Shown piece after piece: positions 917 to 33,486 of a stretch of DNA of 42,998 bases (position 1 is the stretch's first letter; every line of letters begins with the position of its first letter). Origin of the DNA: Candidatus Kapaibacterium sp. (GTDB lineage: Bacteria > Bacteroidota > Ignavibacteria > Kapaibacteriales > UBA2268); assembly GCA_026390675.1 (NCBI GenBank), contig JAPLFM010000175.1:1-42998 (forward strand), given 5' to 3'. A program made the position numbers and the translations under genes. Under the pieces are notes generated by a model. That model saw only the letters and a program-made list of their open reading frames with translations, was not told the origin of the DNA and did no database searches.

Positions 917-958
917 TTGAATTATGAGTTAATAATTATGAATTATGAATTATGAATT
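917..958 (+). repeat. heptamer tandem array (ATGARTT), about 6 units
   Basis: ttgaatt atgagtt aataatt atgaatt atgaatt atgaatt. Confidence 0.85.
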
Positions 959-973
959 TAGGAAACTTTGTAT

Positions 974-1010
974 AAAAAAAATGTCTGAAACAATTTCGTT
1001 TCAGACATTT
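974..1010 (-). terminator. Rho-independent terminator of the arsR-arsM-four-helix-bundle transcript
   Basis: Stem AAATGTCTGAAAC / GTTTCAGACATTT with a T-run following on the minus strand. Confidence 0.8.
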
Positions 1011-1024
1011 ATATTAGATTCAGG

Positions 1025-1059
1025 ATTAAGTATTAATTATGAATTATGAATTATTAATT
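1025..1059 (+). repeat. degenerate heptamer array (ATGAATT/ATTAATT), about 5 units
   Basis: attaagt attaatt atgaatt atgaatt attaatt, just beyond the stop codon at 1068. Confidence 0.7.
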
Positions 1060-1067
1060 GAATAGTA

Positions 1068-1421
1068 TTATATGATATTTTTTGAGGTTTTGATTATGCT
1101 AGTTATTATTTTCTTAAGCTCAATGGCATCAACTATTATACTATCAAATTGAGTTTGGCTTACATAATCTGTGTTATATAATAGCTCCAGCCAATAAATT
1201 GTTTCATTTATTTCTTTTTGTGCAATGGAAAGTTTATGAATAAAATCAGCTTTACTTTCAGCATTTTCTGATTCTCTTACTAAAGCACCAACCGAAGTTC
1301 CACTTCTTAAAACTTGCTTTGACAATACAAATTCTCTTTTGTCATTAATAAGATACTGGCTAAATTTTACAATTCTAATAGCAAAAGAAAAGCTTTTCTC
1401 TTTAATTATATTTTTTTTCAT
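1068..1421 (-). CDS. four helix bundle protein (TIGR02436 / 23S rRNA IVP / Avd-like)
   Basis: KSFSFAIRIV...LSKQVLRSGTSVGALVRE...SKADFIHKLSIAQKEINETIYWLELL family signature. Confidence 0.93.
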   Translation of the reverse strand: MKKNIIKEKSFSFAIRIVKFSQYLINDKREFVLSKQVLRSGTSVGALVRESENAESKADFIHKLSIAQKEINETIYWLELLYNTDYVSQTQFDSIIVDAIELKKIITSIIKTSKNII

Positions 1422-1446
1422 ACTATTTCTTTAAGCTTATAACAAA

Positions 1447-1551
1447 AACTCATAATTCATAACTCATAACTCATAACTCATAACTCATAATTCATAACTC
1501 ATAATTCTTAATTCATAATTCATAACTCATAATTCATAACTCATAATTCTT
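1447..1551 (+). repeat. heptamer tandem array (AAYTCWT) x15, reverse complement of the 917-1059 arrays
   Basis: 15 consecutive aactcat/aattcat/aattctt units between the arsM stop and the four-helix-bundle start. Confidence 0.95.
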
Positions 1552-1557
1552 AATTAT

Positions 1558-2391
1558 CTAACAGCATCCAGGTTCGCAACAAGATTCTTTCTTTTCACCA
1601 TAAACAGTAATACTTGCAATTGCATTACCACTTAATTTGTATTCAGATAGTTCATCTTTGGAAAGATACTGTAACATTATATCATCAGGTATTTCAATAT
1701 TTTTTTCTTTCTGCACTTTAATATTAGTAAATCCAGCATCAGCCAATCCTTTTAAATAATCTTCTATTTGCATAGCTCCTGAAACACAACCTGCATACAT
1801 CTCACTTGCCTCTTTTACGCCTTTTGGCAGGTTACCTTTTAGTACCACATCGGACACACTAAAATGCCCATTTGGTTTAATGATTCTAAACATTTCAGAA
1901 AATGCTTTTGGTTTATTGGGAACTAAATTGAGCACACAATTAGAAACAACAACATCAACTCTATTTGAAGCAATTGGAATTTTTTCAATTTCGCCAAATC
2001 TAAATTCAACATTATTAAACCCAAGCTTTTCCGAATTTTCTCTAGCTTTGTCAATCATTGCTTCAGTCATATCTATTCCAATTACTTTTCCTGTTTCACC
2101 AGTAATTGCTCTAGCCACAAAACAATCATTACCTGCTCCTGAGCCAAGATCAACAACTGTATCACCTTCTTTGATTAGTGCAAATTCAGTAGGCAAGCCA
2201 CAGCCCAATCCTAAATCAGCATCAGCATTATATCCATCGAGTTTTGAATAATTTTCACTAAAGATAGTATAATCTACAGTTGCACAACCTCCCACACCAC
2301 AGCAAGATGTTTCATTTTCTGTTTTACTCTGCAATGCTATTAGTGAGTATTTTTCTTTCACCATTTCTTTTATTTGAATATCTGTTTCCAT
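1558..2391 (-). CDS. arsM: arsenite S-adenosylmethionine methyltransferase
   Basis: LGLGCGLP, VVDLGSGAGND, SNCVLNL and YAGCVSGA motifs; N- and C-terminal CC pairs; adjacent arsR. Confidence 0.93.
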   Translation of the reverse strand: METDIQIKEMVKEKYSLIALQSKTENETSCCGVGGCATVDYTIFSENYSKLDGYNADADLGLGCGLPTEFALIKEGDTVVDLGSGAGNDCFVARAITGETGKVIGIDMTEAMIDKARENSEKLGFNNVEFRFGEIEKIPIASNRVDVVVSNCVLNLVPNKPKAFSEMFRIIKPNGHFSVSDVVLKGNLPKGVKEASEMYAGCVSGAMQIEDYLKGLADAGFTNIKVQKEKNIEIPDDIMLQYLSKDELSEYKLSGNAIASITVYGEKKESCCEPGCC

Positions 2392-2402: not shown

Positions 2403-2735
2403 TTAGCAGTTACAAGCTGCCAAATCTATACTTTTATTTAAAAATTTATCAATTAGTTTTTTTATATTTAAAAGAGCATCATTATTTATACAATAGCAAA
2501 CGTTTTTACCATTTATTTCACCTTTGATTATACCAGCCTCTTTTAGCTCATTCAAATGCTGGGTAACAGTTGTTCTACTTAATGGTAGTTCTAAAGCGAT
2601 ATTACCCGAAAAGCAAATATTCTTTTCAGCCAAATAGATAATAATAGCTAATCTTGCTGGATGAGAAAGTGCTTTATTTATTCTTGCCAAGTCCTGCAGT
2701 TCTTGACTAAAATTTTCGGCTTTTGATGTTGACAT
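2403..2735 (-). CDS. arsR: ArsR/SmtB family repressor
   Basis: KALSHPARLAII...TVTQHLNELKEAGII...VCYCIN winged HTH; Cys-rich C-terminus. Confidence 0.9.
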   Translation of the reverse strand: MSTSKAENFSQELQDLARINKALSHPARLAIIIYLAEKNICFSGNIALELPLSRTTVTQHLNELKEAGIIKGEINGKNVCYCINNDALLNIKKLIDKFLNKSIDLAACNC

Positions 2736-22096: not shown

Positions 22097-23597
22097 CACT
22101 AAACTTACCACCTTTCTTAATACCGCCACTTCTTCTTGGTCTAGAATCGCCCTCTGGCTTTTCGAATTTTTTAGCTCTACTCTCTCTATCAGATGAGTCC
22201 CATCTCTTTTTCTTATCATCAGATCCAGAAGCAGTCCTATCTGTACCGGGAGTATATTCCCTCTTAGGTCCATCTACTCTTGTCGAAGAGTAAATTCTCT
22301 TTGGTCTGTCTTCACTACTACGTGGAGTATATTCTCGCTTTGGTCTATCTTCACTACTGCGTGGTGTATATTCTCGCTTTGGTCTATCTTCACTACTGCG
22401 TGATGAATATTCTCGCTTAGGTCTATCTTCACTACTGCGTGATGAATATTCTCGCTTAGGTCTATCTTCACTACTGCGTGATGAATATTCTCGCTTAGGT
22501 CTATCTTCACTACTGCGTGGTGTATATTCTCGCTTAGGTCTATCTTCACTACTGCGTGGTGTATATTCTCGCTTAGGTCTGTCTTCACTACTAGAACTAT
22601 AAGCTCTTTTTGGTCTTTCACCATCACCTATACTTTCTCTTCTTGGAGGTCTATCTCCAGCGTCCATATCTCCATCAGGTCTTGGTGGTCTTTCTTCTCT
22701 ACCAAATCCTCTAAATCTATCTTTCTTAAAATCGCCTTCTTTTCTTTTTTTGTCTTTTCCGCCTCTATATCCAAACTCTTTATCATCATTGTCATCAATA
22801 GTTCTAGTAGGTTTAAATTTATTTCTATCTTCTCTAAATGGAACCACAGCAACTGGTACATTATTCTCTCTACCTTCAAAACAAATCACAACCTCAGCAC
22901 GCACCGATAATGTTTCAAATTTCTTCTTTAGTTCTTCAAAAGTACCATAATGATGTGTTTCAAATAGTGTTGTCAAATTCATACCAATATAAGCTCTACG
23001 TTCTGGCATTACTTCGCAAGCTGCATCAAGAAATGGGCGAAGTCTGTAAGGAGTTTCCAAAAGTACAACTGTATGTGGCTGTCTTTCCAATGCTTTTAAT
23101 GCTTCTATTCTTAGCTCAGTTTTTTGAGATACAAATCCTGCATAATAGAATTTGTCAATTGGCAAACCGCTACGTACTAAGGCAGCCATAATTGATGTTA
23201 CTCCGGGAGCAACTTCAATTTCAATTCCAGCAGCAAGTGCTGCACTTACCAAATTTGCACCCGGATCTGCAAATACAGGAGTTCCACAATCAGAAATCAA
23301 TCCAATTCTAGTTCCTTCTTTCATCTTTTTTATATATTCAGCTACACGTTGGGTTTCATTTTGTTCATTTAGATTATCTAAATCTTTGCGTATATTATGT
23401 GTTTTTAATAGCTGTGCCCCAACTCTAAACTCTTCACAAACAATTAAGTCCGATAATTTTAGTAGTCTTATTGCTCTTTGAGTAATATCTTCTTCGTTTC
23501 CAATTGGGGTAGATATAATATAAAGTTTACCAACTTTTGGCTCTTCTATTTCTATCTTTTTACGCATAGAAAGATCTTCATTTTCAAATTTTCTCAT
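22077..23597 (-). CDS. rsmI: 16S rRNA (C1402-2'-O) methyltransferase with a long charged repeat tail
   Basis: LYIISTPIGNEEDITQRA, LISDCGTPVFADPG, ETPYRL; ~250 aa R/D/E/S-rich extension. Confidence 0.9.
   Translation of the reverse strand: MRKFENEDLSMRKKIEIEEPKVGKLYIISTPIGNEEDITQRAIRLLKLSDLIVCEEFRVGAQLLKTHNIRKDLDNLNEQNETQRVAEYIKKMKEGTRIGLISDCGTPVFADPGANLVSAALAAGIEIEVAPGVTSIMAALVRSGLPIDKFYYAGFVSQKTELRIEALKALERQPHTVVLLETPYRLRPFLDAACEVMPERRAYIGMNLTTLFETHHYGTFEELKKKFETLSVRAEVVICFEGRENNVPVAVVPFREDRNKFKPTRTIDDNDDKEFGYRGGKDKKRKEGDFKKDRFRGFGREERPPRPDGDMDAGDRPPRRESIGDGERPKRAYSSSSEDRPKREYTPRSSEDRPKREYTPRSSEDRPKREYSSRSSEDRPKREYSSRSSEDRPKREYSSRSSEDRPKREYTPRSSEDRPKREYTPRSSEDRPKRIYSSTRVDGPKREYTPGTDRTASGSDDKKKRWDSSDRESRAKKFEKPEGDSRPRRSGGIKKGGKFSGVCCNG
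22282..22593 (-). repeat. 39-bp coding tandem repeat x8 (SSEDRPKREY[TP/SS]R)
   Basis: Eight near-identical units visible in both DNA and protein. Confidence 0.92.
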
Positions 23598-27231: not shown

Positions 27232-27840
27232 ATGCAAGAAAAAACACTAACTTATGAGCAATTAATCAATCTTTTTAGTGAATTAAGAGATTCTCAAGCT
27301 AAAACTGATGCTCAATTAAAAGAATCACAAGCTAAAACTGATGCTCAATTAGCCAAAACTGATGCTCAATTAGCTGAAACGAATAGATATATCAAAGAAT
27401 TAGGAATTCAAATAGGTGGAGTAAATAGAAGTTTTGGAAAATTTACTGAAGAATTATTTATGAGCTCACTTGAAATAATGATGAAATCAAACTTTGGTAT
27501 TCAATCATTTGATCCAAATCCTTCACGTAAGTTAGAATCTGATAGTATTGAAATAGATGCTATGGGAATTATTAATGGCAGTATTAACAAAGTTTATATT
27601 GCTGAAATTAAATCTACTTATAGCAAAAAAGCAGTAAAGCAGTTAAGTAAAATAATGGCTAAATTCAACTCTTTTTATCCAGAATTAAGTGATAAAAAGA
27701 AATTTGGAATTATTGCTGTACCATTTTTGAAAGAAGAACAAATAAAAGAAATTTCAAATGCAGGATTTTATCCAGCTGTTTTCAAAAATGAAATGTTAGT
27801 TATTCAATCTCCTGATAATTTCAAAGCAAAAGCTTTTTAA
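27232..27840 (+). CDS. coiled-coil plus PD-(D/E)xK nuclease-like protein (DUF3782-like)
   Basis: AKTDAQL heptad repeats; FGKFTEE...IEIDA...IAEIKS putative E-D-ExK triad. Confidence 0.75.
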   Translation: MQEKTLTYEQLINLFSELRDSQAKTDAQLKESQAKTDAQLAKTDAQLAETNRYIKELGIQIGGVNRSFGKFTEELFMSSLEIMMKSNFGIQSFDPNPSRKLESDSIEIDAMGIINGSINKVYIAEIKSTYSKKAVKQLSKIMAKFNSFYPELSDKKKFGIIAVPFLKEEQIKEISNAGFYPAVFKNEMLVIQSPDNFKAKAF

Positions 27841-31527: not shown

Positions 31528-33486
31528 GTGCAGGAAGCACCAAATATGATAGATTTAGCCAAAAATAAAGCTTCTCAATCAAAAGATGTTTTTGAAAGTT
31601 TAAATAAATTCAATAATATCCAAAAAGATACAGGAAGTAAAAACAAAGATGATTACTCGTTTTCCTCTTTAATTACGTTATCTGATAAGAACTTACAGAA
31701 GCTTAAAGGTAAATTTAAAGAAGAAAATGTTAGTATCAATTCGCCATTCGAAGAAGTTCCTTTTGAAAACTTCAAATCATTTATTAATGGTTTGCTTTCA
31801 GCTGGCGACTTAGATAATACAAACTTTGATACTGCTTTTAATACAAGTAATAATAGTACTCAATTTGGTTTTTTAGCAAACGATATGGCTAAAAATATTG
31901 ACCAATTGGAGAATATTAAACAAAAAATTAGTGAATTTGGATCTGGTCAAATCATTTCATTTGATGATTTATCAATTGGAGATTTAAAAACTTTAGAAGC
32001 AAATAATATAACACTTAATTTGAAACCTAAGACAAATGGGTTAGAAAAAGCAGATTTAAATTTAGATAATCTTAATATTAAAGATTTACTTATTAAGTCA
32101 AATGAAGGAAATAATTTATTAAGCAAAGAAGATATAAACCTTCTAAAGAATGTTTCTGACAAACTTAATCTTTCTGAAAAACTTAGTATTAAAGATTTAA
32201 TTGTAAAATCAAATGAATTAAGTGATTTAATCAGTAAAGAAGATATAAACTTTCTAAAAAAAGTATCTGACAAACTTAATCTTGAAGAATCAAACTTTGA
32301 TGATTTAACATTGGACAGCTCTAAAATGGGTGATACTTTAATTTTGGAAAATCAAACTTTAGGATTAAACAATAATGTATCTTCAACAATAAATATTTTA
32401 GATAATTTGTCAAAAGTTGATTTTAATAAAATTGAAATTAACCTTACAAATTCAAACACTATATCAGATTTAAAAGGAAACAAAGTAACTTTATCTGACA
32501 AAACAATTAGTGCTATTGATAGTTTGGATGAATTTGTGAACGAAGAAACAGCAAGTAACAAATCTGTTGGATTTAATAATAGTAGTTCAGATAATAGCAT
32601 CAAGCCAATTACAAATACTAAAACTAATAAACTTTCAGACATAGTAATGTTTAAAGATGCATATATTAAAATTGAAAAGAACACTAAGCACACAAATCAA
32701 GATATTCAACCTCAACAGATTTATACGAATGACGGTTTAAAACTTAACAACTTTTTGATTAATCAAAATGTTAAAATAAATGACAAAACAACAAGTGATA
32801 ACAATTTTATTTTTAATGATACAGGCAATGAAATTGTTTCACAACATTTCGAATTACAAAAAGAAACAAATTTAGAAAATGATTCCAATGGCAAGAGTAA
32901 TAACTTCTTTGACTTCTCTAAAAAGGAAACATTGGTTGAAGATAATATATTAAAAACTCAAGTAGATTTAGTAGGACAATCAAAATTTAAAACTGAGTTT
33001 TTCAAAGCAGAAATGAAAGAAATTCCTGCTCGCTCATTTTCAAATGTTAATCCTAATGAGATTAATGCTCCAATTTTGAAAACCATCAACGATATGCATG
33101 GTGATGGCTCAACAGTTGCAAATTTAATACTCAACCCAGCCAATCTTGGTATGATAAGAGTAGAAATAGCAATAAAAGATAATGTAGCTAAAATTAAAAT
33201 TAATGCAGAAAGCGCTGATGTAGCAAAAACAATAGAAGCTCAACTTCCAGCATTAAAAGATAAATTAGCAGAAAGTGGTATTAAAACAGACAATTTAGAT
33301 TTGAATTACAACAAAAAAGAAAGTGAAAGTAGTGATCACTTTGCACAAAATCAGCAAAATGCAAAACAAGAGGAAGGCGAAGTTAGGAAAAAATATTTAG
33401 AATTTATGAAGCGCTTAGGGGAATTAGAAAAAGGCTTTAGCGAAAAATTCGGATATGATCCTGAACCGTCGAAAATAAAAGTATGA
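31528..33486 (+). CDS. fliK: flagellar hook-length control protein
   Basis: Low-complexity N-terminus; C-terminal LILNPANLGMIRVEI...QLPALKDKLAESGI domain; upstream of flgD. Confidence 0.85.
   Translation: MQEAPNMIDLAKNKASQSKDVFESLNKFNNIQKDTGSKNKDDYSFSSLITLSDKNLQKLKGKFKEENVSINSPFEEVPFENFKSFINGLLSAGDLDNTNFDTAFNTSNNSTQFGFLANDMAKNIDQLENIKQKISEFGSGQIISFDDLSIGDLKTLEANNITLNLKPKTNGLEKADLNLDNLNIKDLLIKSNEGNNLLSKEDINLLKNVSDKLNLSEKLSIKDLIVKSNELSDLISKEDINFLKKVSDKLNLEESNFDDLTLDSSKMGDTLILENQTLGLNNNVSSTINILDNLSKVDFNKIEINLTNSNTISDLKGNKVTLSDKTISAIDSLDEFVNEETASNKSVGFNNSSSDNSIKPITNTKTNKLSDIVMFKDAYIKIEKNTKHTNQDIQPQQIYTNDGLKLNNFLINQNVKINDKTTSDNNFIFNDTGNEIVSQHFELQKETNLENDSNGKSNNFFDFSKKETLVEDNILKTQVDLVGQSKFKTEFFKAEMKEIPARSFSNVNPNEINAPILKTINDMHGDGSTVANLILNPANLGMIRVEIAIKDNVAKIKINAESADVAKTIEAQLPALKDKLAESGIKTDNLDLNYNKKESESSDHFAQNQQNAKQEEGEVRKKYLEFMKRLGELEKGFSEKFGYDPEPSKIKV
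32071..32292 (+). repeat. 111-bp (37-aa) tandem duplication inside fliK
   Basis: LNIKDLLIKSNEGNNLLSKEDINLLKNVSDKLNLSEK / LSIKDLIVKSNELSDLISKEDINFLKKVSDKLNLEES. Confidence 0.85.

Follow-up and report, generated by a model that had tools for sequence, protein, structure and literature searches.

In the current study, we examined a 42,998-nt stretch of DNA from Candidatus Kapaibacterium sp. (GenBank assembly GCA_026390675.1, contig JAPLFM010000175.1, forward strand; the whole stretch is called the window here), near the start of which a small gene stands between mutually inverted arrays of 7-nt repeats, directly behind arsR and arsM. The gene belongs to the family of the intervening sequence protein (IVP) of 23S rRNA, named after the intervening sequences (IVSs) of that rRNA; gene and arrays together are referred to below as the cassette, and the arrays as its arms. 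That the gene lies between inverted heptamer arrays, as a first-pass annotation made from the sequence letters had noticed, is confirmed. Read along the minus strand, the order of arsM stop codon, 15 heptamers, open reading frame (ORF), about five inverted heptamers, terminator and about six inverted heptamers was reproduced with Tandem Repeats Finder, family profiles and a hairpin search (Table 1). In two respects the description needed correction: the 5′ array reaches position 1555, not 1551, and the cassette, which does adjoin arsM, closes a two-gene arsR-arsM unit at its 3′ end, ahead of the terminator, rather than lying inside an ars operon. The interpretation offered with that annotation is partly supported. 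What we describe is an IVS-type cassette outside rRNA, a relative of the known rRNA IVSs.

Table 1. Parts of the cassette and of its host transcription unit, in window coordinates and in the order in which the minus strand reads them
Feature	Position	Strand	Basis
arsR-type metalloregulator gene, first of the host transcription unit	2403..2735	-	NF033788, 59.1 bits (cut-off 55); HTH_20, HTH_5
arsM, arsenite methyltransferase gene	1558..2391	-	NF008823, 345.4 bits (cut-off 263); Methyltransf_31
5′ arm, 15 tandem heptamers ATGARTT as read on the minus strand (ATGAGTT and ATGAATT mixed)	1450..1555	-	Tandem Repeats Finder: period 7, 15.1 copies, 88% matches, score 149; complementary to each 3′ array
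Leader, 28 nt, from 5′ arm to IVP start codon	1422..1449	-	Sequence reading
IVP gene, 117 residues, four-helix-bundle "23S rRNA intervening sequence protein" family	1068..1421	-	PF05635, TIGR02436, PDB 2RLD
Inner 3′ arm, about five inverted heptamers (AATTCAT-like on the minus strand), 5′ of the terminator	1025..1059	-	Tandem Repeats Finder: 5.0 copies, 89%; inverted pairs with 5′ arm
Intrinsic-terminator-like hairpin and T run	979..1010	-	14-pair stem with 4 G-C pairs, then TTTTT
Outer 3′ arm, about six inverted heptamers, 3′ of the terminator	918..958	-	Tandem Repeats Finder: 5.9 copies, 82%

The arsM stop codon (TAG) stands 2 nt ahead of the 5′ array, and the terminator-like hairpin, which is likely the end of the arsR-arsM-IVP transcript, is placed between the inner and outer 3′ arrays. 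Against both downstream arrays, the upstream array aligns as a reverse complement in at least 10 registers, with 83 to 91% complementarity over about 40 nt; the best inverted pair of the outer 3′ arm joins it to positions 1507 to 1549 over 43 nt at 91% complementarity. A 671-nt minus-strand RNA has a predicted fold of −169.9 kcal/mol, compared with −113.6 ± 5.5 kcal/mol for shuffled sequences (z = −10.3), and in this fold the ORF and the terminator are looped out by the paired arrays. These registers and the predicted fold bear out the earlier suggestion that the arrays can pair in many registers around the ORF. By the same evidence, the cassette has the complementary flanks, folding around an ORF, that mark an rRNA IVS. 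It is not located in a 23S or 16S rRNA helix but between arsM and the terminator, and a search of Rfam at E up to 0.1 gave no family at this locus or at three other array loci. Beyond the cassette come a 78-residue ORF without a Pfam match and then, by reading, a secreted-looking fragment, with no further ars gene.

To our knowledge, the IVP (S23p) family has had no assigned function since 1993, despite solved structures and thousands of copies. The protein encoded here is a full-length member, matching PF05635 at 92 bits (cut-off 33.8; profile positions 1 to 105 of 106) and TIGR02436 at 101.9 bits (cut-off 24; positions 1 to 109 of 109), and its gene is present as a single copy in the genome. 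The fold was assigned through sequence matches to two structures: PDB 2RLD, matched directly at E = 2.2e-40 over residues 1 to 115, and PDB 2GSC (XCC0516), reached at E = 2.4e-31 with a profile of 20 IVP members. Each deposition holds five chains, and XCC0516 is described as a homopentameric toroid (PMC4990558). Residues Q36, S43, E50 and E73 are invariant across 20 sequences. R39, S43 and E50 agree with the motif GxxRxxxSxxxNxxE given for the family, the N position of which is L47 here; the source of that motif also reports IVP genes wedged between cas genes (PMC3936711). The gene is, by the measure of its substitutions, under purifying selection and its protein functional, since dN/dS (the ratio of nonsynonymous to synonymous divergence) is 0.03 to 0.13 at dS of at least 0.9 among six intact orthologous Flavobacterium cassettes; a seventh copy (genome G058) has a premature stop.

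The links of the family to rRNA IVSs and to Avd, which the first-pass annotation had named, are in print (PMC4990558, PMC10053308). Avd represents a related fold family, PF05635 being said to resemble it in a comparison of PDB 4DWL with 2GSC (PMC10053308); by sequence, Avd was not reached in PDB with the profile of 20 IVPs. We rejected a role in a diversity-generating retroelement, the setting of Avd: template and variable repeats are absent, the 94%-complete genome gave no match to the reverse transcriptase family RVT_1, and the neighbours of the IVP gene are arsM and the 78-residue ORF.

Nor does the cassette look like a component of the ars system. Among 41 genomes (this one, G000, and 40 relatives), arsM is present in 19, and the fetched flanks of arsM held an IVP gene at 0 of the 20 loci outside G000, in line with the earlier statement that the family has no known role in arsenic resistance. 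Behind arsM in the same-genus genome G001, whose ArsM is 86% identical, stand a terminator hairpin and a convergent regulator gene, and no array is present; in G002 the next gene is, by sequence reading, one for arsenite efflux. A comparison of arsM loci for an empty site, proposed at the outset, thus found the cassette absent from all 20, but the exact empty site is not definable because the gene order 3′ of arsM differs in every relative inspected, synteny ending at arsM. Homologous cassettes adjoin unrelated genes. Judging by these gene orders, the cassette is a discrete unit at the 3′ end of arsRM and not an ars component.

It had also been proposed that all TIGR02436 genes of this genome be examined for inverted 7-mer flanks. 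The genome yields only the gene described above, which is so flanked. TIGR02436 has 39 matches in 22 of the 41 genomes, and around most of the strong ones there are period-7 arrays upstream with their complement downstream, the unit being different in nearly every cassette (for example, ATCGAAC, GGGTAWT, TTCTGAA, AATGAAA, CAATGAT and GTGAGTT). Five weak matches (<55 bits) are without arrays, and two of these were read as preceding a flagellar hook-associated gene. A scan of species genomes gave 603 confirmed relatives, of which the best 80 loci, 57 to 73% identical to the window's protein, were used; they are skewed to the window's own protein clade by the search alignment of 7 sequences. The records of these 80 loci are labelled Bacteroidota, Cyanobacteria, Proteobacteria, Chlorobiota and others, and labels of metagenome-assembled genomes may be wrong.

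Altogether 101 cassettes were collected, and the 92 with a normal-length ORF and full flanks were analysed. The best tandem repeat was an array with a period of 7 in 96 of 184 proximal flanks, compared with 2 of 174 distal control segments (450 to 650 nt away) and 1 of 184 shuffled flanks. Arrays stood on at least one side in 67 of the 92 cassettes and, at a laxer threshold, on both sides in 48; over the 92 homologues the median spacer from array to ATG is 33 nt. Inverted complementarity reached a score of at least 30 in 59 of 92 pairs of flanks from the same cassette, compared with 15 of 92 pairs made with a flank of another locus, 19 of 92 in direct orientation and 0 of 82 distal pairs. The open-access literature, supplements aside, yielded no description of IVP genes with flanking heptamer arrays outside rRNA. 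Three homologous cassettes have settings of their own. Those at L026 and L032 (genomes G026 and G028) are GC rich, with GCGAGCG-type arms in coding-looking sequence, and seemingly lie within a long reading frame, their flanks resembling one large enzyme gene; the one at L033 (G009:C38) has CAATGAT-type arms and lies between tRNA-like genes, as judged by eye.

In 29 cassettes with arrays on both sides, the two arms of a cassette agree at 6.31 of 7 unit positions, whereas arms of different cassettes agree at 4.59 of 7, and a unit score of at least 6 was reached by 25 of 29 own pairs as opposed to 5 of 29 pairs made across cassettes. Across the window's clade (61 cassettes), the more two proteins differ, the more their units differ as well (Mantel r = 0.32, p = 0.0005), whereas the units do not follow the difference in flank GC (r = 0.085, p = 0.085). 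Within this clade, the units share the consensus AATKRTK, with a mean identity of 4.92, compared with 4.39 ± 0.10 for shuffled units. Records labelled as different families, orders and phyla contain proteins that are 77 to 85% identical and whose cassettes have the same AATGGTT arms. The units GGGTAWT, CATTGWT and ATCGAMC were found, among the 41 genomes, only in the genome that carries the respective cassette, bar one stray CATTGWT match in G012, and two of the three occur in their carrier genome solely at the cassette. Because the arms of a cassette share a unit and the unit follows the protein tree, gene and arms are, on these sequence comparisons, co-inherited as one unit, as foreseen in the earlier idea of a protein with its cognate repeats.

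The position of the gene relative to its neighbours is likewise regular. Where 600-nt flanks were available (86 cassettes), 80 of 84 upstream neighbours and 75 of 82 downstream neighbours run in the same direction as the IVP gene, and 75 of the 86 IVP genes lie between co-oriented genes. The upstream reading frame ends a median of 48 nt before the IVP start codon, which agrees with the proposed insertion at gene ends. Given a co-oriented upstream neighbour and so short a gap, the IVP gene evidently relies on read-through transcription, as far as gene arrangement can indicate.

The reading that we prefer, tentatively and with somewhat less than an even chance of its being right as a whole, is that of an acquired, co-transcribed, stem-looped IVP cassette, IVS-like and probably processed by RNase III, with a functional protein. 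On this account, a small four-helix-bundle gene with its own inverted 7-nt arrays would have lodged at the 3′ end of arsR-arsM. It would ride the host transcript, because no terminator separates arsM from the IVP gene and the first one follows the inner 3′ arm. Within that transcript, many registers are available for pairing of the 5′ arm with the inner 3′ arm, and the long, imperfect stem so formed would loop out the ORF. Such a stem is the type of substrate that RNase III cuts in rRNA IVSs, and cleavage would then split the IVP message off that of arsRM. The protein would, by homology, be a pentameric nucleic-acid-binding toroid related to Avd, for which the repeat arrays are the most plausible ligands. 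We infer the pairing in vivo, the RNase III cleavage and the ligand of the protein; an RNase III gene is present in the genome.

Several observations weigh against this reading. The first-pass annotation had named relatives that keep the arrays without the gene as one of the outcomes that would count against its own interpretation, and arrays without the gene were found in part: G011 (96% complete) has AATTACG arrays on 6 contigs and no TIGR02436 match, and 42 arrays of the cassette's unit in this genome are without an IVP gene. Of the 92 homologues, 25 have no clear period-7 array on either side. In 33 of the 92, inverted complementarity falls below 30, and in the window's cassette the complementarity of the arms is imperfect, at 83 to 91%. 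The outer 3′ array, longer and better matching, lies past the terminator and may be outside the transcript. In G012, inverted ATGARTT pairs enclose non-coding cargo.

The mismatches between arms bear on the same question, since a helix kept by selection in the sense RNA should favor G·U mismatches over those of the A·C type. In 59 cassettes, the best alignments of the arms contained 1999 Watson-Crick pairs, 78 G·U-type mismatches, 73 of the A·C type (binomial p = 0.74, with no positive control on IVS stems) and 216 others; counted by cassette, 19 had more G·U, 20 had more A·C and 20 had equal numbers. The mismatch spectrum is thus without an RNA-strand signature, which weighs against our preferred reading by removing the sole sequence-level argument for RNA pairing, although it does not rule such pairing out. 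The many transversions suggest that unit variants are replaced as wholes and not altered by point changes under a pairing constraint.

So symmetric a spectrum speaks for arms that act in DNA. The cassette would then be a foldback-type element in which hairpins or cruciforms drive insertion, loss and arm homogenisation, with the RNA stem as a by-product, an explanation that we consider unlikely but not far-fetched. Eukaryotic foldback transposons and miniature inverted-repeat transposable elements have terminal inverted repeats of short tandem units, small or absent cargo and patchy presence. A patchy presence was also seen at a syntenic Flavobacterium site, where the cassette is present in 7 genomes and, among the matches listed, the site is empty in 50 of 101 and partial in 2 or 3 (empty meaning two flank pieces less than 240 nt apart, counted from the 101 listed genomes, with another 91 matches unlisted). 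The empty genomes, at 88 to 89% flank identity, are as near to the query as the filled genome G058 (88 to 90%) and nearer than the other filled ones (75 to 81%), and repeated loss or repeated gain is therefore needed. In G065, about two units of the 3′ arm are left at the empty site, and at L168 (G054) a complete forward plus inverted arm, a cargo-less foldback, stands at both sides of the IVP gene. Action in DNA would also suit the outer arm beyond the terminator, the G012 pairs around non-coding cargo and the AATGGTT arms shared by similar proteins across records labelled as different families and phyla. In G061 (C1:25728-26169), the syntenic site is empty and a 75%-identical copy of the cassette lies beyond the downstream gene.

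Unlike the eukaryotic elements, however, the cassette has no transposase or recombinase ORF, no target-site duplication was identified or was definable at the Flavobacterium site, and the cargo is a conserved, non-enzymatic four-helix-bundle protein. The Flavobacterium cassette, moreover, diverges with its flanks at dS of at least 0.9, which argues for long vertical residence and repeated loss rather than frequent jumping; all 7 filled loci keep AATT-type heptamer arms (by eye) despite this saturated synonymous divergence. A symmetric element alone would also leave the co-orientation of 80 of 84 upstream neighbours unexplained. In sum, the outer arm, the filled/empty polymorphism and the double foldback of G054 point to DNA-level events, and the orientation rule, the sense arrays that abut stop codons (see below) and the published RNase III cut in Coxiella point to RNA. 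The co-transcribed cassette, the DNA foldback and the recognition of repeats by the protein, to which we come below, are not mutually exclusive.

The unit of this cassette is not confined to it. The genome (3.66 Mb in 330 contigs, 28.6% GC) has 78 matches to (AATTATG)3 with up to 1 mismatch, and chance is excluded because the reversed control pattern has 0 matches in all 41 genomes. We kept 45 arrays of the cassette's own unit, all outside crude ORF calls, from 52 detected, after dropping 7 rows with scores of 15 or less and poor unit matches. With its many intergenic arrays of one unit, this is a genome with dispersed heptamer simple-sequence repeats. In so AT-rich a genome, and with heptamer repeat excess in bacteria already in print (PMC4692102), the gene might lie between three ATGAATT arrays by coincidence. 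This explanation is largely refuted, and we give it hardly any credence. An inverted partner within 900 nt was found at 1 of 43 array loci, that of the sole IVP gene (score 55), the other 42 arrays scoring 23 or less; homologues carry their own, different, mutually complementary arms; and (AATTATG)3, present in 7 of the 41 genomes, each with a TIGR02436 match, is absent from the same-genus genomes G001 and G002.

A stop codon of a same-strand ORF lies no more than 4 nt from the start of 18 of the 45 arrays, these being the 5′ arm of the cassette and 17 solo arrays out of 42; one array adjoins a gene end in antisense. At the junction the sequence is typically T followed directly by AATTATG, with TAA as the stop, and several arrays precede a terminator hairpin. 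Many of the solo arrays behind stop codons follow genes for secreted proteins (cargo of the type IX secretion system), and the sorting domain Por_Secre_tail of that system was found in 5 of 16 scanned proteins upstream of arrays. The contexts are repetitive. Nineteen of the 45 arrays directly follow an 11-nt palindromic tandem array, (GGTTTGCAAAC)n, within larger mosaic repeats (for example, C29:4890-4925, C133, C214, C276 and C40; locus L158:4890-5020) that contain further repeated modules of about 70 nt after the heptamer arrays and are often found no more than a few hundred bases from a contig end, and 13 arrays follow two families of paralogous gene ends. Because so many sit in repeated contexts, the number of independent array events must be far lower than 42. 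Tandem repeats of other kinds also occur in the window: a 39-nt repeat at 22299-22592 (7.5 copies, 96% matches), probably within a coding region, a 111-nt repeat at 32071-32283 (1.9 copies) and 33/21-nt repeats at 27281-27380.

Two accounts of the arrays were tried and rejected. As decayed remains of cassettes, the solo arrays should lie near traces of the gene, which gained no support; a tblastn search with 20 IVPs (E up to 5) gave 29 places, of which only the true gene and one chance match in a coding gene were near arrays (a clean excision would leave nothing to find). A reading of (AUGARUU)n as mini-ORFs for re-initiation, with AUG and UGA in every frame, fails in that the units of most other cassettes have no ATG.

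A further explanation, which we think improbable, is that the arrays are candidate binding sites of the IVP protein, the arms being autoregulatory and the solo arrays targets in trans, whether in RNA, 3′ of stop codons, or in DNA. Put structurally, and with as little confidence, the IVP pentamer would read, or maintain, tandem 7-nt arrays, each protomer perhaps taking one unit; its own sites would be the arms and its trans targets the solo arrays behind stop codons. The five chains of 2RLD and 2GSC and the toroid described for XCC0516 (PMC4990558) would suit such a reader, as would the AATKRTK consensus of the clade and the 42 further arrays of the cassette's own unit in this genome, with 17 starting at same-strand stops and 1 antisense. 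Similarly, G013 has a cassette with AATTACG arms and the same unit on 10 further contigs, where G000 has 0 AATTACG matches, and G020 has AGTTATR arms and five matching loci. Against this stand the arrays of G011 without a detected IVP gene and those of G012, where at least 18 ATGARTT loci lack an exact match to any of the six IVP cassettes. There are, moreover, few or no solo arrays of the unit for three other cassettes, the solo arrays here are concentrated in repeated contexts (the 19 after GGTTTGCAAAC and the 13 after paralogous gene ends), and the correlation of unit with protein is explicable by shared descent.

The arrays of the relatives have peculiarities of their own. In G012, the inverted ATGARTT arrays at L131:640-1010, L132:650-810 and L137:640-875 surround 90 to 300 nt of small palindromic repeats, with no IVP gene. 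At L137, the unit of the partner array is a one-base variant, ATTCAGA, and ATTCAGA is the arm unit of another G012 IVP cassette. Solo arrays of about 25 to 35 units start at a stop codon at L144 (G013:C75:8960-9190) and L142 (G020:C41), and at L142 a second tandem array, with a period of about 15, comes after the heptamer array.

Ralph and McClelland reportedly described ORF-bearing 23S rRNA IVSs in 1993. Returning to the co-transcribed, IVS-like cassette that we prefer, its closest likeness is to the 23S rRNA IVSs of Leptospira and Coxiella burnetii, with which it has in common the protein family and complementary flanks that form a stem around the ORF. It differs in standing after a protein-coding gene instead of in an rRNA helix, and its arms are long arrays of a 7-nt unit where the rRNA IVS has a unique 28-bp stem. 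The Coxiella ORF is described as decaying, whereas the cassette-type ORF is under purifying selection; as reported in the same source, the Coxiella IVS has variable-number tandem heptamers, GACAGAT, directly upstream of the S23p ORF, the first of them being where RNase III cuts (PMC4990558).

The arrays themselves have parallels in Xanthomonas (GGGAATC) and Nostoc (GGGGA(C/T)T), where there are likewise many intergenic arrays of one unit, single and inverted and mostly transcribed (PMC4692102). For Xanthomonas, about 186 arrays with 70 to 75 convergent inverted pairs are given, and they are read there as G-quadruplex formers. The main text of that paper is without the terms "23S", "intervening", "S23" and "four-helix", and so does not mention IVPs. 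Unlike those units, ATGAATT cannot, from its composition, form a G-quadruplex, and the G-quadruplex explanation is therefore not a general one. [quoted passage not shown]

For annotation, our results mean that such cassettes are not to be read as members of the operons in which they sit. The genome examined here offers a clean contrast, with one paired locus that has the gene and 42 unpaired arrays, and it is an AT-rich case outside the G-quadruplex explanation. If, as a rule, inverted arrays specific to the cassette enclose the gene, the rRNA IVS would be a special case of a wider element, the IVP protein would gain an obvious candidate ligand, and the intergenic excess of 7-nt repeats would gain a candidate cause. 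Should the protein indeed recognize the repeats, this would be a previously unrecognised system, one that would explain both the 30-year-old puzzle of the IVS protein and the excess of GGGAATC in Xanthomonas and of heptamers in cyanobacteria.

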